Positions 1 through 55,785 of a stretch of 64,000 bases of DNA are shown piece after piece. The notes beneath the pieces are model-generated. The model saw only the letters and a program-made list of their open reading frames with translations, did no database searches and was not told where the DNA came from. A program made the position numbers and the translations under genes. Origin of the DNA: an uncultured Peptococcaceae bacterium (GTDB taxonomy: Bacteria; Bacillota; Dehalobacteriia; UBA4068); NCBI GenBank assembly GCA_964372025.1, contig CAYJPF010000002.1, positions 9,999 to 73,998 of the forward strand, written 5' to 3'. Position 1 is the stretch's first letter; the number at the start of each line of letters is the position of its first letter.

Positions 1-431
1 AACTTTGCGAATCTAAGCTAGATTATAAGGATCGTACCTTTATTCTTGAGACTGGTTCACGTGGTGCGGCATTGTTTAGTAAAGCTGTTCTTGACGTAGT
101 ATCAGGATGGTCAGCGGTTAATTTCCTTGGTGGAAACGCAGCTAATCCAGCCGTGATTAGTAAGACATCTAGCGAACTTCATGACAACGCACTTAGCGCA
201 GGATTCCAGTTTACAGAGTTTAAAGCTCCTATGGGAGTAACTCTTAAAGTTGAGGTGAATCCAATGTATGATGACCCAGTACGTAATAAGATTCTTCATC
301 CAAGTGGTGGTGTAGCCGAGTCTTATCGCTTTGATATCATGAGCATTGGTTCTACAGAAGAGCCTAATATTCAACTTGCTAAAGTACGTGGCAAGGAAGA
401 GATTCGCGGTTATATGTGGGGATTAGCGGCG
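1..431 (+). CDS. late/structural gene, exon 1 (5' end lies outside the window); interrupted by a group I intron
   Basis: Frame 0 is open from the window start to TAA at 432-434 (...KEEIRGYMWGLAA*). Coding-like composition; it lies at the head of the late-gene strand. An intron core follows immediately downstream. Confidence 0.5.
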
Positions 432-1251
432 TAAGCCTTTACACATTTCTCAGTTCCCAGGCCCTGACCAATATCAGAAGAGAGGGCATAAAAAACAAGG
501 TTAATTGCTGGAAACTCTTTAGAGCTTTTAGTACCCAAAACTTCAAACATTTAAATATGGAAGAAACATGGAAAGATATTGAGGGATTTGAACATAAATA
601 TCAAATTAGTTCCCTCGGAAATATCAAATCAGTTGATAGAATTGATACATTAGGTAGATTTAAAAAATCTGCTTTACGTAAAAAATCTTTTGAGAAAGAT
701 GGATATGAGTATATTACTTTAATCGGAAGTAATAGCAAAACAAGATCTTTCTTCGTACATAGACTAGTAGCAAATGCTTTTGTTAAAAAGCCTGATATTG
801 ACACACTACAAGTAAATCATATCGATGGCAACAAATTAAATAATGCTAGCTCTAATCTAGAGTGGGTGACTCCACAACAAAATACTAAGCATGCGCTCAC
901 ATTAGGACTTCGCCCATCCGGAGAAGATCATCCGAATGCTAAACTAACTAATGCTCAAGTATTAGAGATTCCTACATTATTAAATTTAGGATATTCTCAG
1001 AAAAAGATTTCTATATTATATAATGTATCCTATTCAACTATTAAAAATATTTGCCAAAAACGTAAATGGCAATTTTTGGGTAACAATCTAAAAGATTAGA
1101 CAATCAGCAGCCAAGCTTCGCAAGAAGAAGGTTCAACGACTATCCCGTTCGGGAGTAGGACTCAAGTGAGTTCGAAACGCCTTGAATTAGTTATTTATTT
1201 AACTAATTAAGATATAGTCTGAACTCTCTAGAAATAGAGAGAGAATACATG
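432..1251 (+). mobile_element. group I intron (IA-like core) carrying an HNH homing endonuclease ORF
   Basis: The canonical group I conserved elements are all visible: P AATTGCTGGAAA (503-514), Q AATCAGCAGCC (1102-1112), R GTTCAACGACTAT (1131-1143) and S AAGATATAGTCT (1209-1220). A P9-like GNRA hairpin CTCTCTA-GAAA-TAGAGAG sits at 1224-1243. The endonuclease ORF lies between P and Q. Exact splice sites are not determined. Confidence 0.7.
557..1099 (+). CDS. HNH homing endonuclease (NUMOD4 + HNH_3-like) encoded inside the intron
   Basis: ATG at 557, TAG stop at 1097-1099. Motifs: EGFEHKYQISSLGNIKS (NUMOD4-like), HIDGNKLNNASSNLEWVTPQQN (HNH) and AKLTNAQVLEI. The track ORF start at 416 is an upstream intron-sequence extension. 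Confidence 0.85.
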   Translation: MEETWKDIEGFEHKYQISSLGNIKSVDRIDTLGRFKKSALRKKSFEKDGYEYITLIGSNSKTRSFFVHRLVANAFVKKPDIDTLQVNHIDGNKLNNASSNLEWVTPQQNTKHALTLGLRPSGEDHPNAKLTNAQVLEIPTLLNLGYSQKKISILYNVSYSTIKNICQKRKWQFLGNNLKD

Positions 1252-1427
1252 GAAACGATGTATTCGTAACGTATAATGTGAGAAATCCGTTTAATGGTAG
1301 TTCAAATAATCCATATATGTCGTATGCAGAGGACTCTGCACAAATCCACAAGATGGCTACTCTAGGTGTCTTTATCCTAGATCCAACTCGTACAATGAGT
1401 TTGATTCCAAATATTCTTGTAGAGTAA
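1252..1427 (+). CDS. putative exon 2 (C-terminal ~58 aa) of the intron-split late gene
   Basis: A frame 0 ORF, the same frame as exon 1, is open from 1218 to TAA at 1425-1427 (…NDVFVTYNVRNPFNGSSNNPYMSYAEDSAQIHKMATLGVFILDPTRTMSLIPNILVE*). A plausible terminal intron G sits at 1251. The junction codon could be T|GA (Trp). Boundaries are inferred, not proven. Confidence 0.35.
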
Positions 1428-15038: not shown

Positions 15039-16770
15039 AAATAAAAATATAGTACCAGCAGCATTAGGTGTAGCTACTTCAGCTACATCTAATTTGCTAG
15101 ATACAGGAGCAGACCCTTATAATATAAACTCAATAGGGCAATTTAATTCTAGGGAAGCACTCATAGGAGCTATGCAGGGGTGAGATCCCCAACAAGAAGT
15201 TTCTGTAGGAGGAACTGCCCTAAAAGGAGCTGCAGCTGGAGCGAGCGCAGGATCAGTAGCGGGACCTTTGGGAACATTGATAGGTGGAGTAGTGGGCGGA
15301 GCAAGCGGGTTCTTTGGAGGACAAGCTAAGAATAATTCCATTCGTCACCAAAATACTCAAATTCAAGATGCCTTCGCAGATCAAAACGACTATCTACGTT
15401 TAAAGCAGATCAATCAAACCATGGCTAATATCGCTAAGCATGGTGGTAAATTAAATACCCACGGAGGAACTTTTACATCAGATTTTACATCATTTAATAA
15501 CGGTGGGAGGCATGAGCAAAACCCCAATAGAGGTATTCCACAAGGAGTAGATCCACAAGGAATTCCTAATTTAGTAGAAGAGGGGGAGACTAAATGAGAT
15601 GATTATATATTCTCAGATAGCCTAAAAACTTCTCCAAAACTAAATAAACAGTTACATTTAAAAAATATAGATAATATGACTTTTGCTAAAGCTTCTAAAA
15701 AGATTACTAAAGAATCTGAGGAAAGACCTTTTGATAATATCAGTAAACGAGGCAAAGAGCGTATGCTAAATAGGTTAAAGGATGAACAAGAAGTTTTCCG
15801 CAAGCCTGTTAATAATATGTATAATGATGGAGGTCCTTTGGAGTTCTTTAAAAAATATATGGATACGCCGGATTTCTCGGGAGAAAGTAATCCATTAATT
15901 AATAAGATTCCGAGGTATAGTACAATGTGGAAAGGAGAAGATTCTGCAGATTTTACTTCAGAATACGCATTTAATGTTCCAAAGTTAAATTTAGACGTTA
16001 CGCAGACTCCGGAAATTACTTCTAGTAATTTAGATCAATATGATTTTATGCGTGGCAGAGATAGACTTCCTATAGTAGACACAGAGAATGTAAATATTAA
16101 TACACCTATTTTTCCTGATACCTCTATACAAAGTCGCTCTACTGCAGTAGTCCCCAATGTCTCTAAGACTTCCAACATAGATTGAGGAGAAGCGGCTATG
16201 TTCGCTCCCGCAATTACTAATTTAGGAAATGTTATAGCTGATATGACCAGTACTCCGGAAGTAGCAAGCTTTGGTAGAATGAATATTAGTGATTCTATTA
16301 AACGTAGGTATTTACCATATACTCCGGTTGATAGAGAATATTTAGCTAATAGATATAGAGCGCAGGCTGGGGCAGCTACGAGAGGAATTATAGATTCTTC
16401 TGGAGGAAATTCAGCAGCAGCTAGAGCATCACTAATTGCACAAAACTTCAATAGTCAAAATGCTTTGGGAGATATGTATAAACAATTAGATGACACTAAT
16501 AGAAATAGACTAATCCAATCTCTTACTTTCGATACTCAGCAAGATGCACAACGTGCACAACTCCTCGCACAAGAACAAGGATTTAACGCACAAATGGGTA
16601 TGCAAGAGTACGATATTAATGCTAGGAATAGAGCAGCTAAGCGCAATGCAGTTAGAGCGGGCATTAATACTGTAGGCAGAGATATTGGAGAAGTAGGAAA
16701 ATATATGAATAATACGGACATAGTAAATCTATTATATTCATATGATAAAAAAGGTAATTATAAAAAGTAA
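15028..16770 (+). CDS. late virion protein, 580 aa, with a Gly/Ala-rich N-terminal segment (TGA at 15181, 15595, 16183)
   Basis: Frame 1 from ATG 15028 through track ORFs 15268, 15676 and 16198 to TAA at 16768-16770. The gaps contain only TGA. Confidence 0.65.
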
Positions 16771-18437
16771 TGGCTGGTATAAGTGCTTATGATAAGATAG
16801 AGTATGGGGAGTTCAAGCTCCCCTCTCTTCAAGAAATGATGATTGTTCCTGAGTACCTTACTCAGCAGCATGAAATGACTAATGCTGAATTGATTAACAC
16901 TCAATTAGAAGCAGTTAATGTAGGATCATCATTGATACCAGGTATTGATGATGACCTTCTACAACAAACTAATGCTTTTCAACAAAACGTTGATAGCACA
17001 ATAGAAGAATTAGGAAGAACAGGTATTAATTCTACTATAAAAAGTAAGTTAATTGCTGCTAAAAAACAGTATAATACTAACATAGCTCCTATAGGGGTAG
17101 CTGCGCAATCCAGAGAAGCAGCTGCTGCAGAGATAGATGAAGCTCGTATTAAAAATCCAAATTTAATTGCTAAGGATCTTAGATCTATTAGATTATCAGA
17201 TTGAATTTCTAATCCATCTCTCCGTAATCCGGATATGATTGATCTTATGCAGGTGGAAGATAGTGCATATAAAGCTATGGAGCCTTTACAAAATTATGTT
17301 GCCTCCACTGCGCCCGAATTACTTTCAACAGGTCTTTTAGGTAAATATTTTACTAAGGTTCAACAAGGGGCTTCTGTTAATGATATTGCACAATCTATGA
17401 TTATGGATGGCGGGATGGCTCCAGAAAATGCTTCGGAGTTAAGTAAATTAATGCATCTAACTGCACAAAATTTATATGATCTTACTGGAGTAGCTTCTAA
17501 TTATGGTGCACAATCAGAGGCTTCTAACAGAGTATTAGGAATTATTCAAAATGCCTATAATTCAACTATAGGTTCTCCTACTTTTGGAACATTAACTGAC
17601 GAGTGGGCATTAGCAAAAGCGAGGAAAGGTCTAGAAGACTCTGGACAAGATACGCAACAAGGGTATCAATTTTTGACTACTTTGTCTGAACAACGTGATC
17701 CTAATGCTGCGCAAACTTACTCTGAATTATTAGCTCTTCATGCTGACCCAATGGGCACATTCACTACTACTCCCAATAATTCCCCCTCTACCTTTATAGC
17801 AACCGGCATGGGAGGAACTACTATTAAGAATCATGATGAATTAACAGCAAGGTTACGTAAATTAGGATGAGAGGTTACATCAGAGGACGTGCTTAATAAC
17901 ACTCCGTTAGTTCAGCAAGCGATGCAGCATGCACAAACTCAGCTTGCTCAGGCCTCCGAACAACAAGTAGAACTTAATCTTAATTATCCTGATTTTAAGA
18001 GTAATTTTAAAAATATGATAATGCCCAAGGCTTCTACAGGAATGATTAATATTTATAGTTCTACCGAAGATGCTAAAAACGGGACCTCTAAAATTAAGAA
18101 AAAGACCATTGAGGACTTGGCTAAATTAGAGTGATCCAATGATGTCACGGTAGATTTTCAAACTCACGACGGATTATTAGTAATTCGCACACCCGACTCT
18201 GATGATAAATTCTATATTAAACCTGAGGATATTAATACTACTTTAGTTAATACTATGCAAGAGTACAGAGCTCTGCGAGATATGTCGCAAAAAGATTTTT
18301 ACACACATTTAATAAGATTATCTCCTCAACAGGCTGCTTATCAAACAGCACTAAGAAATGATCCACAAGTTATAGGTAATATCATTTTTAATAACCTATC
18401 ATCGGAGAATCAAGGTACTCATTATAAATTAGAATAA
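16770..18437 (+). CDS. late virion protein, 555 aa (TGA at 17202, 17868, 18132)
   Basis: Frame 0 from ATG 16770 (TAATG overlap) through track ORFs 17235, 17889 and 18255 to TAA at 18435-18437. Confidence 0.7.
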
Positions 18438-34773: not shown

Positions 34774-34816
34774 AAAAAAAAGTCCCCAATAGGTATTTAC
34801 CTACTGGGGATTTTTT
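34774..34816. terminator. bidirectional rho-independent terminator at the convergence of the two arms
   Basis: A-run, then GTCCCCAATAGGTA-TTT-ACCTACTGGGGAT (13-bp stem, 1 mismatch), then a T-run. It lies between the last + gene (ends 34763) and the last - gene (ends 34815). Confidence 0.6.
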
Positions 34817-35129
34817 AGTTTATAGGTATATCAATAACAATAGTATTGTGCCCGTATTTTGCGGGCTCTTTTGTTATGTAATATCCTACAACAGAGTTGA
34901 ACGTATGTACTCCTGAAGAAGCTTTTCTATATATATCAAATACATCAGGGCATTTGGTAGGAATTTGTTCATCATACACTGTCCAAATTCTACTATTATT
35001 TATCCCTAATGCGAGAAGCTTTGGTAAGTCTCCTCTGTGATATAATATGCCGTTATTGGGAGCATTTAAGAAGAATTGATTTATAATAGGTTCATATTCT
35101 TCTCTCCACTCGTTATACTTAATCTCCAT
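34815..35129 (-). CDS. hypothetical protein (104 aa)
   Basis: Clean ORF with a TAA stop. Confidence 0.55.
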   Translation of the reverse strand: MEIKYNEWREEYEPIINQFFLNAPNNGILYHRGDLPKLLALGINNSRIWTVYDEQIPTKCPDVFDIYRKASSGVHTFNSVVGYYITKEPAKYGHNTIVIDIPIN

Positions 35130-52228: not shown

Positions 52229-53092
52229 TTACCAATCGTCTTCTACATCTGTTGCCGCGGTAACTTCCGAAGGATTCGTTGGAGTTAAGGTAAAATCCCT
52301 AAGCTCAAAGTCTGATGGGCCAAAATTAGTATTTTTATACCCACCAAATTCTTGCACATTCGCAAGACGTTTAGCTACAAAATCTACATTTCGCGCCCCT
52401 CCTCGAATTGGAACATCAACAAACCAATCTTGAAATACTCGATTATCCTCTGTTATACGTGCTCCCGCTAGCATCTTAAAGATTTTCATAGAAGCCATAT
52501 AAGACTTTAGCTCTTTGATATTACCAGTTGTAGCCATCGCCTTAATATCATCCATACGAGATAGTGCGTCTTGCTTATTAGCAATAACATTTCCCTCAAA
52601 ATTAATTACTCTGGGGATGTTGATGGCTGTCTGGAGAAGCATCGTAAGTCTTTCTTCTCCCACAAAAGCAGGGCGAACGTCCTCCATTAAGAAGTTGGGA
52701 AAGTTTTCAGGAGGAGTATTAGTTTCCATCTGCTCCTTAGTAACCCAAGCAAATTGCCCATACGGGTTCACGACCTGTACCTTGGATTTATCTGCATTAA
52801 ATCTTTTCTCTGGAGTAACCCAGATAGCAAATTTACTAAGAACATCTACATCACTTTCTTTAGTAGATTGTACGTAGAAATCCAGCCTTAGACGAGCAGT
52901 ACCTGTATTAGGATCTTTGTCCAAATACACAAGATCTTTTTCAATGACCCTATTCTGTAACTTACCCAATTCTTCTTTTGTAGGATTAATGGCTACAATT
53001 TGAATTGGCATAATTCCCGTATACACAGGTTGTGGAGTGAAAGTAGCAGCTTCTGAGCCAGCTGCAAAGGCCATCATCAATAATTCTGACAT
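52229..53092 (-). CDS. putative ssDNA-binding protein with an acidic C-terminal tail
   Basis: ATG at 53090-53092 (MSELL…). The C-terminus is …TAATDVEDDW. It lies between the primase and a RecA-fold ATPase, the usual SSB position. The assignment is by context and composition only. Confidence 0.4.
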   Translation of the reverse strand: MSELLMMAFAAGSEAATFTPQPVYTGIMPIQIVAINPTKEELGKLQNRVIEKDLVYLDKDPNTGTARLRLDFYVQSTKESDVDVLSKFAIWVTPEKRFNADKSKVQVVNPYGQFAWVTKEQMETNTPPENFPNFLMEDVRPAFVGEERLTMLLQTAINIPRVINFEGNVIANKQDALSRMDDIKAMATTGNIKELKSYMASMKIFKMLAGARITEDNRVFQDWFVDVPIRGGARNVDFVAKRLANVQEFGGYKNTNFGPSDFELRDFTLTPTNPSEVTAATDVEDDW

Positions 53093-53108
53093 AATATAGT
53101 TATTTAAA

Positions 53109-53483
53109 TTAAATACCGTAATATTCACGGATAGAATTGTCTACTAAAGACAATGAATTTGGGATCAGCATGTCGTTAAACATACCAATAGGAGATTTTC
53201 CAGAACTTGCATTACATTGTGTCTCAAAGTAATACTTATTTCTTCCATCTCCTGATGCTTCTACCTTAGTAAATAACACTACAGGTAAGAGAGATTCTGG
53301 GAATACTTTTTTGAGTTTTCTACCAGAAGTGGCTAATACTTTACGCTCTTGTCCAGAAGCATCTGTAACAAGTTCAGGATGCCCGAATATGTAGCATATT
53401 TGGTCTTCCCTAAGAATAGTATTAGCAGTCTTAATAATATCTACTACATCAATAGCTAAATCCTTCCATTGCGTTTGTTTTCA
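53109..53483 (-). CDS. exon 2 of an intron-split RecA-fold P-loop ATPase (Sak4/AAA_24-like)
   Basis: The frame is open from just after TAA(53484-53486)/TGA(53481-53483) to TAA 53109-53111. It has no start codon of its own. It reads …DLAIDVVDIIK…ICYIFGHPELV…MFNDMLIPNSLSLVDNSIREYYGI. Confidence 0.5.
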
Positions 53484-54254
53484 TTAGGTTTTTTATCCTA
53501 ATCTCTACGCATTTCTGCGTAGTCCAGCATACATCATCGCTTCACAGCGTTGGGCACTCGTGGGGTAATTATTAGTGACTTCTTCATACCCTATGCGTTG
53601 AACCTTCTCCATACTAATTAGTCTTCAGGAGCTTGGCTGCTTTTAAGTGATTTTCCCTATAATAAGGTTTTTACCATCTAATAGGCGTTATCCTATCTGC
53701 TTCTAAATACTTTTCAGTAAGTAAGCGGTACTTATTATTTTACAGGACGTTCCAGCAATTCACCCAATTTTAATTCGACCATTATTTAAATTGCCACCTA
53801 AATCCATAGGCTGTGTTGTACTTAGGTAGATTGTTACAACACTTTTGAATAGGACTATATGCACTTTTGTTAATAGATCTCGCAGCTTCTCTAATCGCAG
53901 GGAATTCTGCTAATACTTTCCCAGTATAACGATCTATTTTTAATACTGTTTTACCACGACTATAGTGACTATTATATTTAGTACTGCACCACTCTAAATT
54001 ATCCACATTATTATTAATTTTATTTTCATCTTTATGATTTACTTCTGGATAATTTTGTGGATTGGGTAAGAAGGTAAGCGCTACAGCTCTATGCATAGAT
54101 AGGTGATATTGTTTGTAATTATTATTCAGGGTTACAAACTTATATCCACGGGAATCAGTTGCTTGTTTTAAAGGTACTCCCTTCAAACCAAGTATGACTC
54201 CTGTTCTAGATACTTTGTATCTTGGATCTATAGGCAATTCTTTAAATTCCATAA
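53484..54254 (-). mobile_element. group I intron (same family as the 432-1251 intron) carrying an HNH homing endonuclease
   Basis: On the - strand: P GAATTGCTGGAA (53750-53761), Q AAGCAGCCAAGC (53631-53644), R GGTTCAACGCATAG (53591-53607) and a GNRA hairpin CTACGCAG-AAA-TGCGTAG near 53500. The ORF lies 5' of P. Boundaries are approximate. Confidence 0.6.
53782..54252 (-). CDS. HNH homing endonuclease (NUMOD4 + HNH_3-like) inside the intron
   Basis: MEFKELPIDPRYKVSRTGVILG (NUMOD4-like) and HKDENKINNNVDNLEWCSTKYN (HNH). TAA stop. Confidence 0.8.
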   Translation of the reverse strand: MEFKELPIDPRYKVSRTGVILGLKGVPLKQATDSRGYKFVTLNNNYKQYHLSMHRAVALTFLPNPQNYPEVNHKDENKINNNVDNLEWCSTKYNSHYSRGKTVLKIDRYTGKVLAEFPAIREAARSINKSAYSPIQKCCNNLPKYNTAYGFRWQFK

Positions 54255-54601
54255 TCGAATGACATTTTCTTGCGATCTCCCAACTCTTTAAAAGTTAGGT
54301 AACTATTAATTGTATCAATAGCACAAGATTTGATGTTCTCATCTTTAGACCAAGCTTCTAGAGTTTTAATAATAGTTGCAATATTATCAGTCTCTCTATA
54401 ATTGCGATTCTCTGCATTCCATTGTTTAGTTAATGCCGCAGGGAAAGGCAATTTCTTTTGATCAATATTGATTATTCCATGATGTTTGGGATTGATTCCC
54501 AAATAGTTTTCTACAAAGTCAATTGATCCATCAGGATTAATAACTGTAGAAGTAGATTTTCCGTCCCCGGAGAACCCAACGATTCCGACAACCACGCCCA
54601 T
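54255..54601 (-). CDS. exon 1 of the split P-loop ATPase (Walker A/B part)
   Basis: MGVVVGIVGFSGDGKST (Walker A) and …SCAIDTINSYLTF (Walker B-like). Its frame terminates at TAA 54242-54244, just past the HNH start, so the 3' boundary is approximate. Confidence 0.5.
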
Positions 54602-55785
54602 ATTCGTATAAATTTAAATTTCATAGTAGTCTTTTGTTTAGGATCTACTAATAAAGTAGCCACAATAACTTTATTATTTTGCCTTATAGCATTAATTTTA
54701 TTGTAAACTACTTCTAACTTCGCCTCCTCAGTAGGAGGAGGTAATTCTTTAAAGAAATTAACGGCTCCGTCAAAGTATAGAGGACAAATAAATTTGCCTC
54801 CTCCTTCTCGGCCTCCAATTAACTCTAGAAAGCGTATATTATCACCAAATTTGGCAATATTATACTTTAGAAAGGTAGGAATATTGTATCTATGGGGAGC
54901 ATATAAGCCCATAAATATATCCACGTCTCTCCATGTTGTTTTGCACTCACCTAGTCCGTCAGCAGAGGGCTTCAGCTTATCAAGTTTGAAATTCTCCGTG
55001 CCTTCTTGGGAAGCAGCCTGTTGTTGTACAACTACAAATGTAAATTTATATCTATTTCGTAATTGCACTAAATATTTCGAAGATAACAATTCTATAGTAG
55101 ACCGTAGATCTAGTCCCTTTTCTTGGGTAAGTAAGGATATGTGGTCTATGATTACTATGTTATACAACTCAGGGTCATTAGGTTCATAATAATCAAAAAC
55201 TGATCTAGAGTACTCCTCATGGGTCTCATTATCTTTAAATATTTTAGATGTAAAATGCGTAGTTCCAACAGATGAAGCATATTTCTGTAAAAACTCCTTA
55301 ATACCTGTTGGGTGCCGCACATCGTCGATGAAAGTCACGTGCTCCTCAAAATACGTAATATATTTTTGATATTCCGGAGTTTGTAGTAACTCTATTGCTT
55401 CCTGAGGAAGTAACTTTTCCAAGTTAATAGAGCGCAGTTGTTGACTATCCAATCTAATCTTTTGGCCGGATAATTTAAATAATAAATAGCAGAGAAATTG
55501 TATATATTTTTGTTCTACACTCATCTCAAATGTAAAATAAAACCATCGCACATGAAGACCTTTATCAATAGCTTCAAATATAGGCTCATATACTGCCATA
55601 AAGTCTGTAATTTGGGTCTTACCTACTTTAGAATTAGCTGTAACTAATATATATTTACCCTTCTCAAATCCTGGAAATACTGCTCTAAATCTAGGAAACG
55701 GTGAGGGAATACAATTAGTTAAACCTTTTACGATTCTCTCTCTATAACTTATTAAATTATGGAATACGCGTTCAAATATAGCCAT
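54511..55785 (-). CDS. DnaB/gp4-like replicative helicase
   Basis: ILVTANSKVGKTQITDFMA (H1), FTFEMSVEQ (H1a), IVIIDHISLL (H2). TAG stop at 54511-54513. The 3' end overlaps the next gene by 91 nt. Confidence 0.75.
   Translation of the reverse strand: MAIFERVFHNLISYRERIVKGLTNCIPSPFPRFRAVFPGFEKGKYILVTANSKVGKTQITDFMAVYEPIFEAIDKGLHVRWFYFTFEMSVEQKYIQFLCYLLFKLSGQKIRLDSQQLRSINLEKLLPQEAIELLQTPEYQKYITYFEEHVTFIDDVRHPTGIKEFLQKYASSVGTTHFTSKIFKDNETHEEYSRSVFDYYEPNDPELYNIVIIDHISLLTQEKGLDLRSTIELLSSKYLVQLRNRYKFTFVVVQQQAASQEGTENFKLDKLKPSADGLGECKTTWRDVDIFMGLYAPHRYNIPTFLKYNIAKFGDNIRFLELIGGREGGGKFICPLYFDGAVNFFKELPPPTEEAKLEVVYNKINAIRQNNKVIVATLLVDPKQKTTMKFKFIRIWAWLSESLGSPGTENLLLQLLILMDQLTL

Follow-up and report, generated by a model that had tools for sequence, protein, structure and literature searches.

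Evidence for a mobile group I intron carrying an HNH endonuclease gene within a Sak4-like ATPase gene of a crAss-like phage

On the minus strand of the window, as we call the whole 64,000-nucleotide stretch of DNA analysed here, a short open reading frame (ORF) with a Walker A motif runs into an HNH endonuclease frame, beyond which lies a coding frame that has no start codon. The question raised by this locus is whether these frames are separate genes or the pieces of a single one. We conclude that positions 53109-54601 very probably constitute one gene for a Sak4-like P-loop ATPase, presumably of the RecA superfamily, with a 782-nt mobile group I intron inserted after codon 116. An ATPase gene split by an HNH-bearing group I intron had been proposed in a sequence-only reading of the same DNA, and the proposal is upheld by an exact exon junction, a U•G pair in P1, a terminal G, a covarying ribozyme core, orthologous introns and intron-less alleles.

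The two exons and the host gene

The pieces described in that reading are present: the 119-aa Walker A ORF at 54242-54601 and the HNH ORF at 53782-54252 (both minus strand), with the ATG of the second overlapping the end of the first, followed by about 300 nt without a long ORF and then by the start-less frame. The last of these opens at 53480 and not, as had been given, at 53483, the triplet 53483-53481 being TGA. The features of the locus, as we read them, are the following.

54511..55785, minus strand: upstream neighbour, a DnaB-like replicative helicase (Pfam DnaB_C, PHROG 19; gene order as in crAss phage cr108_1)
54254..54601, minus strand: Sak4-like ATPase exon 1, 116 codons, with Walker A GFSGDGKS and the 3' end ...AAA AUG UCA UUC GAU
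53472..54253, minus strand: group I intron, 782 nt, beginning U-AUG... and finishing ...AAACG, with the terminal G at 53472
53782..54252, minus strand: HNH homing endonuclease ORF, I-HmuI-like, 156 aa plus stop, filling the whole P1 loop
53472..53783, minus strand: ribozyme core (family model R1, Rfam RF00028, pair conservation)
53109..53471, minus strand: Sak4-like ATPase exon 2, 120 codons plus stop, starting CAA UGG (QW)
52229..53128, minus strand: downstream 299-aa ORF, uncharacterised (annotated with 287 aa in the public record)

The exons match adjoining parts of one protein family. Exon 1 covers positions 1-101 of the PHROG 2872 profile (E 8.5e-11) and exon 2 positions 102-213 (E 2.6e-22), while the 236-aa protein obtained by joining them matches in a single stretch, residues 1-236 against profile positions 1-213 of 219 (E 5e-40). 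The family is annotated as a "Sak4-like ssDNA annealing protein". The spliced product is 70% identical to an uninterrupted protein of cr108_1 (E 4e-131) without a gap at the junction, and it is this ungapped alignment that fixes the exon junction. When all U...G junction alternatives were enumerated, 54254/53472 alone was found to fit the relatives without an indel. G53482, which lies 5' of AAAACAAACG, was considered as a 3' splice site and rejected, being out of frame with GAU|. The Walker A motif occupies residues 9-16, and G9, S11, G12, G14 and K15 are invariant in an 18-sequence family alignment. The 119-aa exon-1 ORF as such is absent from a large protein collection.

The host gene had been likened to a Sak4/AAA_24-type recombinase. 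The Sak4 half of this label holds, with PHROG 2872 matched end to end and phage proteins annotated as Sak4 matching the ATPase over its full length at about 30% identity. The AAA_24 half does not: no Pfam family, AAA_24 (PF13479) included, matches the spliced protein at E<=1, and AAA_24 is touched by only 4 of 18 relatives, at a best E of 0.0029. As for the RecA fold that had also been claimed, a Foldseek search of the PDB with an AF2 model of the spliced ATPase, itself of low confidence (pLDDT 56.8, pTM 0.62), returned RecA, RAD51, RadA or KaiC for all of the top 50 matches (TM 0.3-0.44, E 5e-5 to 2e-3); a sequence-profile search of the PDB with the ATPase family found nothing. The structural matches weakly suggest that the protein may have a RecA fold.

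The gene lies in the replication/recombination module of a Steigviridae-like crAss phage. The phage carrying it is a gut crAss-like phage. The downstream neighbour had been called SSB-like, a description for which we found no support. Neither Pfam nor PHROG matches the 299-aa ORF, a fold search with its predicted structure gave no match either, and its only hint of an SSB is an acidic C-terminal tail with an invariant Trp as the last residue, seen in a family for which only 6 homologues were found.

Splice sites and ribozyme core

The structural elements of the intron RNA are assigned as follows.

54251..54260, minus strand: P1 5' strand, exon AUUCGAU plus intron UAU (read from the sequence, with a complementarity check)
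53773..53782, minus strand: internal guide sequence and P1 3' strand, AUGGUCGAAU, the first base of which is also the final base of the HNH stop codon
53767-53761 with 53556-53550, minus strand: P3
53758-53752 with 53650-53637, minus strand: P4
53748-53654, minus strand: P5 with an 88-nt extension
53632-53607, minus strand: P6
53598-53592 with 53531-53526, minus strand: P7
53591-53563, minus strand: P7.1
53549-53538, minus strand: P8, GNRA loop, CGCU-GUGA-AGCG
53522-53505, minus strand: P9, GNRA loop, CUACGCA-GAAA-UGCGUAG
53502-53483, minus strand: P9.1
53482-53472, minus strand: 3' tail after P9.1

At the 5' splice site, U54254 pairs with G53779 in the canonical U•G wobble within AUUCGAU/GUCGAAU, and P1 has 7 bp, or 10 bp counting its extension. 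The guide GUCGAAU is found about 480 nt downstream of the end of exon 1, immediately 3' of the stop codon of the HNH ORF, which thus makes up the loop of P1; P2 is absent. At the 3' end the terminal G53472 stands directly 5' of the exon-2 sequence CAAUGG. G53780 and U53781 are able to pair with C53471 and A53470 of exon 2 in a weak P10, which has 2 contiguous pairs in the window as against 4 in most relatives.

The three core motifs quoted in the sequence-only reading each occur once on the minus strand (GAATTGCTGGAA at 53761-53750, AAGCAGCCAAGC at 53642-53631 and GGTTCAACGCATAG at 53604-53591), and in place of its one GNRA hairpin there are two, P8 and P9. Recognition by Rfam is less direct. 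Neither a scan of the whole window at the gathering threshold (50 bits) nor a permissive scan of the whole window gave anything at the 53.5-kb locus; a permissive scan confined to the local 1.7 kb gave a full-length alignment to Intron_gpI (RF00028) at 22.6 bits (E 0.0044). An Intron_gpI match thus exists here, under the cut-off, and the intron proposed in the plus-strand gene near the other end of the window, which encodes the major capsid protein (MCP), reaches 53.9 bits. The curated threshold overlooks the ribozyme at the 53.5-kb locus. R1, a covariance model built from 10 orthologous introns with the window sequence left out, matches 53470-53783 (minus strand) over its full length at 80.8 bits (E 9e-24), and the arrangement is far beyond chance (E about 1e-23).

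Pair conservation was counted in an alignment fitted to the model in every helix but P7; 97.2% of cells are paired across the family, against 35-44% with the partners slid, both partners change in 27 of 38 pairs, and the window copy retains all 32 pairs checked in P3, P4, P5, P7, P7.1 and P9, 13 of them by double (compensatory) changes. One such case in P7 is GACUA/UAGUC to GCAUA/UAUGC. The family covariation values were matched by none of 500 shuffles, and the covariation supports the core helices from P3 to P9 together with the P3/P7 pseudoknot. The window copy has its own peculiarities, namely seven additional nucleotides, ACUUAAA, in the 3' strand of P4, and the 88-nt P5 extension, which is absent in 9 of 11 relatives (L096 has a shorter, unrelated one).

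These results bear on a reading without RNA splicing, by which a free-standing HNH gene splits Sak4 into separately translated halves of a two-subunit protein. T4-like phages, where MobE-type endonucleases interrupt genes, would provide a parallel. Gene callers do treat the pieces as separate ORFs, the HNH ORF immediately abuts exon 1, and a standard gathering-threshold Rfam scan gives no intron here. However, exon 2 offers no ATG, GTG or TTG for 67 codons from the start of its frame, and these codons are conserved; a complete covarying ribozyme core lies between the HNH ORF and exon 2; and the guide pairs exactly with the end of exon 1, the U•G falling at the junction, while exon 2 is preceded by a terminal G. 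We find the two-subunit reading scarcely credible. Three other explanations, namely an intein, a programmed frameshift and a group II intron, were also considered and rejected, since the insert has an ORF of its own, bounded by stops and in a different frame, with a group I core after it. No group II match appeared in the gathering-threshold or permissive Rfam scans of the whole window.

We infer splicing of the Sak4 intron as follows. After transcription, the RNA would fold and an external guanosine would attack 3' of U54254; the terminal G53472 would then dock in the P7 pocket, and the exons would be ligated to ...UUC GAU|CAA UGG... (predicted surrounding sequence ...AUGUCAUUCGAU|CAAUGGAAGGAU...), yielding the 236-aa ATPase. 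The extended P1 helix takes in the start codon of the HNH ORF, at intron nt 2-4, as well as the final base of its stop codon, and the exon-1 reading frame terminates 8 nt past the HNH AUG, so that a single transcript can probably not form P1 while the HNH protein is being translated from it.

Related introns, homing and the capsid-gene intron

Twelve distinct introns, the one in the window and 11 others, are inserted at exactly TTCGAT|CAATGG. The 11 further introns share the insertion codon in Sak4 genes 48-74% identical, and 4 of them exceed the Rfam cut-off (52.1-64.8 bits). The guide GGUCGAA is kept in 11 of the 12 orthologues, the remaining one (L101) having the G•U variant GGUUGAA. The terminal G is replaced by A in 5 of the 12, and therefore not every member of the family is obviously splicing-competent, as judged from these termini. 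Scans with DNA patterns added little: in viral sequences, no contigs beyond those already found were recovered for the intron, and in metagenomes two chance matches within unrelated bacterial genes (L009, L010) were discarded.

Intron-less Sak4 alleles occur in L001-L004. All 12 intron-bearing alleles read TTCGAT^CAATGG, and the four intron-less alleles examined vary at the synonymous positions -1 and +3. Taken together, the shared insertion site and the fixed flanking exon bases provide a limited natural dataset on the constraints that P1/P10 pairing and homing place on host codons. The HNH protein matches PHROG 59 (E 1e-32), Pfam HNH_3 (25.8 bits, the cut-off being 24.8) and I-HmuI (PDB 1U3E) across residues 1-138 (E 9e-10), and its homologues inside the orthologous introns are 55-65% identical. 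In a co-infection, the I-HmuI-like enzyme would nick or cut an intron-less Sak4 gene near TTCGAT^CARTGG, and repair would copy the intron in; the intron-less alleles TTCGAY^CAGTGG, of the L002/L004 type, and TTCGAT^GCTTGG, of the cr108_1 type, are candidate targets of such homing. I-HmuI itself nicks one strand.

It should be considered whether the copy in the window is a decayed, non-splicing intron, Sak4 being effectively a pseudogene in this phage. The Rfam score of only 22.6 bits, the insertion in P4 together with the weak P10, and the five relatives without a terminal G, by which decay may occur in this intron family, would all fit. Against this stand the core pairs, all of those checked being kept and 13 by compensatory changes, which indicates continued selection on the fold. 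Furthermore, both exons are open, with every residue that is invariant in the 18-sequence alignment present (by definition, the window sequence being included in it), the HNH ORF is untruncated and shares 60% identity with its counterparts in the relatives, and the U•G pair and terminal G are intact. Decay is regarded as very unlikely.

A more adventurous proposal is that the family is unusual in two ways, with a translation-gated splicing switch and with members lacking the terminal G that use a conserved G 12 nt upstream or splice non-canonically. Were the switch real, ribosomes on the endonuclease ORF would have to melt P1; were the upstream G used, four codons would be added to the protein. 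We consider this combination unlikely.

The sequence-only reading had also placed the intron of the capsid gene in one mobile family with the Sak4 intron. Its features are listed here.

424..1278, plus strand: group I intron in the major capsid protein gene (Rfam RF00028 53.9 bits; R1 64.4 bits)
417-423 with 453-459, plus strand: P1, UGGGGAU with GUUCCCA
1279-1286 with 445-452, plus strand: P10, UGAGAAAU with AUUUCUCA
557-1099, plus strand: HNH ORF in the P5 loop

The motifs quoted for this intron were located at 503, 1105 and 1130 (plus strand), and in PHROG 11589 the MCP exons cover positions 315-448 and 451-494. A single element, recently homed into two unrelated genes and now present both at 53.5 kb and at 0.4-1.3 kb, could be argued for from the P, Q, R and S blocks common to both, with UGCUGG/CAGCA in P4 of each, from the match of the Sak4-intron model R1 to the MCP intron, from the HNH_3-type (I-HmuI-like) enzymes that both encode, and from a UAAC-like motif 3' of P9.1 in both tails. 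The shared blocks are, however, mostly general Rfam consensus, and the two cores are 53% identical over 178 aligned positions, where unrelated crAss introns show 46-49% and true orthologues 53-66%. The HNH proteins are 36% identical over 72 residues only, the guides are unlike, and the architectures differ, the Sak4 intron having its ORF in the P1 loop and no P2, the MCP intron its ORF in the P5 loop and a P2. A recent common origin by homing is thus improbable. The comparison does not support the two as the same mobile element, and the MCP intron appears to share only the core scaffold with the Sak4 intron.

Comparison with known systems

The T4 td, nrdB and nrdD (sunY) introns have an A/U-rich core with P/Q/R/S blocks, a further helix lies between P7 and P3', and their ORFs are of GIY-YIG or other types, in P6a or P9.1. 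The window intron is similar to them in its A/U-rich core, its P/Q/R/S blocks and the extra helix between P7 and P3'; it likewise has an endonuclease ORF looped from a peripheral helix, and splicing would restore an enzyme of nucleic-acid metabolism. It differs in that its HNH ORF fills the P1 loop, in contrast to the T4 ORFs in P6a or P9.1. The group I intron in the DNA-polymerase gene of SPO1, which encodes I-HmuI (PDB 1U3E), also combines a phage DNA-metabolism gene with an HNH homing endonuclease, but the host gene in the window encodes a Sak4-like ATPase and not a DNA polymerase, and the phage and host lineages differ.

Sak4 of phage HK620 (PMC5928155, PMC2896510) is a RecA/Rad51-like ATPase reduced to the core, about 230 aa long and bearing a Walker A motif, and the protein described here resembles it in length, in the motif and perhaps in the core fold. 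Unlike HK620 Sak4, the window protein has no Pfam AAA_24 match, and its annealing activity is only putative. HK620 Sak4 has an adjacent cognate SSB (PMC5928155), whereas the neighbour in the window has no recognisable SSB match in Pfam, PHROG or fold searches.

The closest precedent is the survey of Yutin et al. [quoted passage not shown] As in the window, these introns occur in the same phage order, interrupt ATP_43b and MCP and contain endonuclease ORFs. The replication-block map in that paper places ATP_43b, an AAA ATPase, between DnaB and primase, and this gene order matches that of the window. The survey detected its introns via their endonuclease domains, with emphasis on the Delta and Zeta groups, while the window is nearest to cr108_1 of the Steigviridae (Beta-group). 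The exact insertion site, guide sequence, ribozyme structure and ORF-in-P1 layout were not found in the searched passages of the paper and its supplements. Since introns in ATP_43b and MCP of crAss phages were already reported there in 2021, the window intron adds a further case; an HNH-bearing intron in Sak4 is, though well supported, a phage mobile element of an ordinary type, and existing knowledge of phage introns is unchanged by it. In gene calls this core recombination gene comes out in pieces or is dropped, and with the exact junction, the guide and the family-specific model it becomes possible to annotate Sak4 (ATP_43b) correctly in the genomes of crAss-like phages.

The split ATPase gene and its predicted splice junction

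The ORF listing bears out the layout described in the sequence-only reading, a 119-aa ORF followed by an HNH ORF and a start-less frame. The frame begins at 53480 rather than at the claimed 53483, because 53483-53481 is TGA. No long ORF is found between the HNH ORF and this opening, and each of the three core motifs proposed from sequence occurs once (53761-53750, 53642-53631 and 53604-53591).

Features of the ATPase region and the intron of the major capsid protein (MCP) gene
54601-54242, minus strand: exon-1 ORF, 119 aa, beginning MGVVVGIVGFSGDGKS
54252-53782, minus strand: HNH ORF, 156 aa, its ATG overlapping the last codons of the 119-aa ORF
53480 to the stop at 53109, minus strand: start-less open frame, first 67 codons without ATG, GTG or TTG
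52229-53128, minus strand: 299-aa ORF between ATPase and primase
424-1278, plus strand: MCP intron, splitting the major capsid gene; placement from P1/P10

In the PHROGs search, the 219-position profile of PHROG 2872 ("Sak4-like ssDNA annealing protein") is covered from 1 to 101 by the 119-aa ORF and from 102 to 213 by the start-less frame. The homologue in the crAss phage cr108_1 (Steigviridae) is uninterrupted at 238 aa (tblastn, phage genomes), and the order DnaB helicase, ATPase, hypothetical proteins, primase is common to cr108_1 and the window. Around the junction (slash), cr108_1 reads ...KMSFD-A-WRDMAID... versus ...KMSFD/YGI(stop) and (stop)(stop)KQT/QWKDLAID... in the window. All frame-preserving U...G junctions were enumerated and their products aligned to cr108_1. 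The sole indel-free junction joins U54254 at the end of exon 1 to C53471 at the start of exon 2, which leaves an intron of 782 nt (54253-53472). The spliced product of 236 aa is 70% identical to the cr108_1 protein (E 4e-131) with no indel at the junction, and it gives one continuous match to PHROG 2872 (E 5e-40). Conservation around the insertion site is very high: D116, W118 and D120 are invariant. The DnaB-like helicase ORF and the start of the ATPase gene share 91 nt (54511-54601, minus strand); the overlap at the matching place in cr108_1 is 44 nt.

Judged by PHROG, the "Sak4-like" identity of the ATPase holds, and phage proteins that carry a Sak4 annotation align with it over the full length at ~30% identity. 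The proposed "AAA_24-type" label has been dropped: Pfam AAA_24 is not matched by the spliced ATPase and is touched weakly by 4 of 18 relatives. The ATPase family profile found nothing among PDB sequences. The AlphaFold model is weak (pLDDT 56.8, pTM 0.62). A Foldseek search with it places RecA, RAD51, RadA or KaiC at every one of the top 50 ranks, at low TM-scores, which makes a RecA-like fold likely though not firmly established.

The 299-aa ORF has no Pfam or PHROG match and six homologues in 5.8 billion proteins, and a fold search with its low-confidence structure model gave no significant match. Its acidic C-terminal tail is conserved, with an invariant terminal Trp. Acidic C-terminal tails ending in Trp resemble those of phage ssDNA-binding proteins, and by this analogy an SSB-like protein is a lead.

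Structure of the intron and evidence for group I membership

No Rfam match was found at the Sak4 intron locus at the curated threshold or in a permissive scan of the whole window; the sole Intron_gpI match in the window at the curated threshold is the other intron (1030-1241, plus strand, 53.9 bits). A permissive local Rfam scan at the Sak4 locus yielded a full-length Intron_gpI alignment with 22.6 bits and E 0.0044. The covariance-model check suggested in the sequence-only reading was thus negative in the curated scan and positive in the local permissive one. Read literally, this came close to the refuting outcome of no covariance-model hit, and independent evidence was therefore sought.

With the spliced ATPase and the HNH protein as queries, searches of viral contigs and a large protein database revealed 11 further distinct contigs in which the Sak4 gene is interrupted at the identical codon by an HNH ORF and a core. 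Their Sak4 genes are 48-74% and their HNH ORFs 55-65% identical to those of the window, and four of the orthologous cores score 52-65 bits against Rfam, over threshold. All intron-containing alleles (12/12) have TTCGAT before the intron and CAATGG after it. R1, a covariance model from 10 of these relatives with the window sequence left out, finds the window copy at full length (53470-53783, minus strand; 80.8 bits, E ~1e-23).

Covariation was evaluated in an alignment guided by this model, with the P7 pseudoknot put in by hand. All 32 pairs checked in P3, P4, P5, P7, P7.1 and P9 are kept in the window copy, and in 13 of them both bases differ from the family consensus; P7 is GCAUA/UAUGC in the window versus GACUA/UAGUC in the family. 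Over all sequences, 97.2% of cells are paired versus 35-44% with the partners slid, in an alignment biased toward the helices of the model, yet P7, absent from the model, is 97.7% paired. Across the family, 27 of 38 pairs are altered on both sides, and 0 of 500 shuffles attain the observed values.

The last seven bases of exon 1, AUUCGAU (54260-54254), can pair with GUCGAAU (53779-53773). In this P1, U54254 faces G53779 as the canonical U•G wobble, and three further pairs, UAU with AUG, carry the helix into the intron. The final intron base is G53472. The first nucleotide of the guide sequence is also the last of the HNH stop codon, and UAAAA separates the guide from P3; the HNH ORF therefore forms the P1 loop and there is no P2. 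P8 and P9 are both GNRA hairpins, with GUGA and GAAA loops respectively, and P7 is followed by a further helix, P7.1, before the 3' strand of P3. In most relatives P10 spans 4 bp, CAAU of exon 2 pairing with AUUG of the guide, but the window copy has only two contiguous pairs.

P7 is not modelled as pairs in Rfam. The low Rfam score plausibly results from the P7 change together with an 88-nt P5 extension (53654-53748, minus strand; branched fold predicted) and a 7-nt insert, ACUUAAA, inside the P4 3' strand (53641-53647, minus strand). One relative, L096, has a 61-nt P5 extension unrelated to this one. Two other weak Rfam matches in the window, NsiR1 (34775-34837, minus strand, 28.1 bits, E 0.2) and PrrB/RsmZ (16720-16831, plus strand, 23.2 bits, E 0.29), are well under threshold and most likely chance.

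The junction, the P1 U•G, the terminal G, the orthologues, R1 and covariation all uphold the original claim of a group I intron with an HNH gene in one ATPase gene. That the Sak4-like ATPase gene carries a real group I intron with an I-HmuI-like HNH gene is well supported, and its splicing is predicted from sequence.

Intron-less alleles and orthologous introns

Four intron-less alleles (L001-L004) read TTCGAC/CAGTGG (two), TTCGAT/CAGTGG and TTCGAT/GCTTGG: position -1 is C or T, and the next codon either has G at +3 or is a different one. In all 12 alleles that contain the intron, -1 is T and +3 is A. These differing positions are synonymous. The pattern fits a constraint on both bases by P1 and P10 pairing when the intron is present; an alternative explanation is variation of the target site that resists cleavage.

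Five of the 12 orthologous introns (L011, L013, L097, L098 and L099) have A as the base immediately preceding exon 2 (CAATGG). Group I introns normally require G as the last intron base. In these five, the P7 guanosine-binding pair is unchanged, and 12 nt upstream, ahead of AUAACA, there is a conserved G. With this G as the 3' site, the reading frame would gain four codons in L011, L013, L098 and L099 but run into a stop codon in L097. The L099 intron (1476-2984, 1509 nt) contains two endonuclease ORFs, HNH in the P1 loop and LAGLIDADG_2 (2117-2731) inserted in the P7.1 region, and could be an intron within an intron. R1 also finds group I-like cores upstream of the Sak4 gene at L098 486-754 (37.9 bits) and L099 499-767 (30.2 bits). 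Since the L098 core adjoins a LAGLIDADG ORF, a neighbouring replication gene may be interrupted in these contigs too.

Comparison with the capsid-gene intron and known systems

The MCP intron is present as proposed, its limits corrected slightly at both ends from 432-1251 to 424-1278. In PHROG 11589, the exons of its gene cover positions 315-448 and 451-494. P1 pairs UGGGGAU with GUUCCCA (7 bp), and P10 is an unusually long, perfect 8 bp (UGAGAAAU with AUUUCUCA). The spliced C-terminus (...YMWG-L-RNPFNG...) aligns in a single piece with the uninterrupted cr108_1 MCP, at 83% identity (189 aa over 567 nt).

R1 matches the MCP intron at 64.4 bits, which indicates a similar scaffold. The P, Q, R and S strings common to both introns are mostly general group I consensus in Rfam alignments. 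Their cores are 53% identical over 178 aligned positions, compared with 46-49% for unrelated crAss introns and 53-66% for true orthologues. The HNH proteins are 36% identical over 72 residues, and the MCP intron differs in having P2 and in carrying its ORF in the P5 loop. These values argue against the suggestion of one mobile family; the two introns appear to have a broad type in common and not to be copies of one element.

The window gene has the same position as ATP_43b, an "AAA domain ATPase" between DnaB and primase in the maps of Yutin et al. (PMC7886860). Group I introns of crAss-like phages in this gene, as in the MCP, PolB and primase genes, are on record there at survey level. Added here are the exact insertion site, the guide sequence, a structure backed by covariation and the placement of the ORF in P1, along with two findings: that the intron occurs in a phage nearest to a Steigviridae (Beta-group) genome, and that it is missed at the curated Rfam threshold. 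The overall interest of the Sak4 intron is modest.

The HNH AUG occupies intron nucleotides 2-4 in the window; in relatives it is preceded by a leader of 15-35 nt. In the unspliced RNA, the exon-1 frame stops at UAA 54244-54242, 8 nt past the HNH AUG (54252-54250), and in relatives it likewise ends near the HNH start. This arrangement suggests that HNH is translated by termination and re-initiation, with translation and P1 folding in competition. Homing by the HNH protein may be expected from its matches to Pfam HNH_3 (25.8 bits, passing the cut-off of 24.8), to PHROG 59 (E 1e-32) and to I-HmuI (PDB 1U3E; residues 1-138 aligned, E 9e-10), the intron endonuclease of Bacillus phage SPO1.
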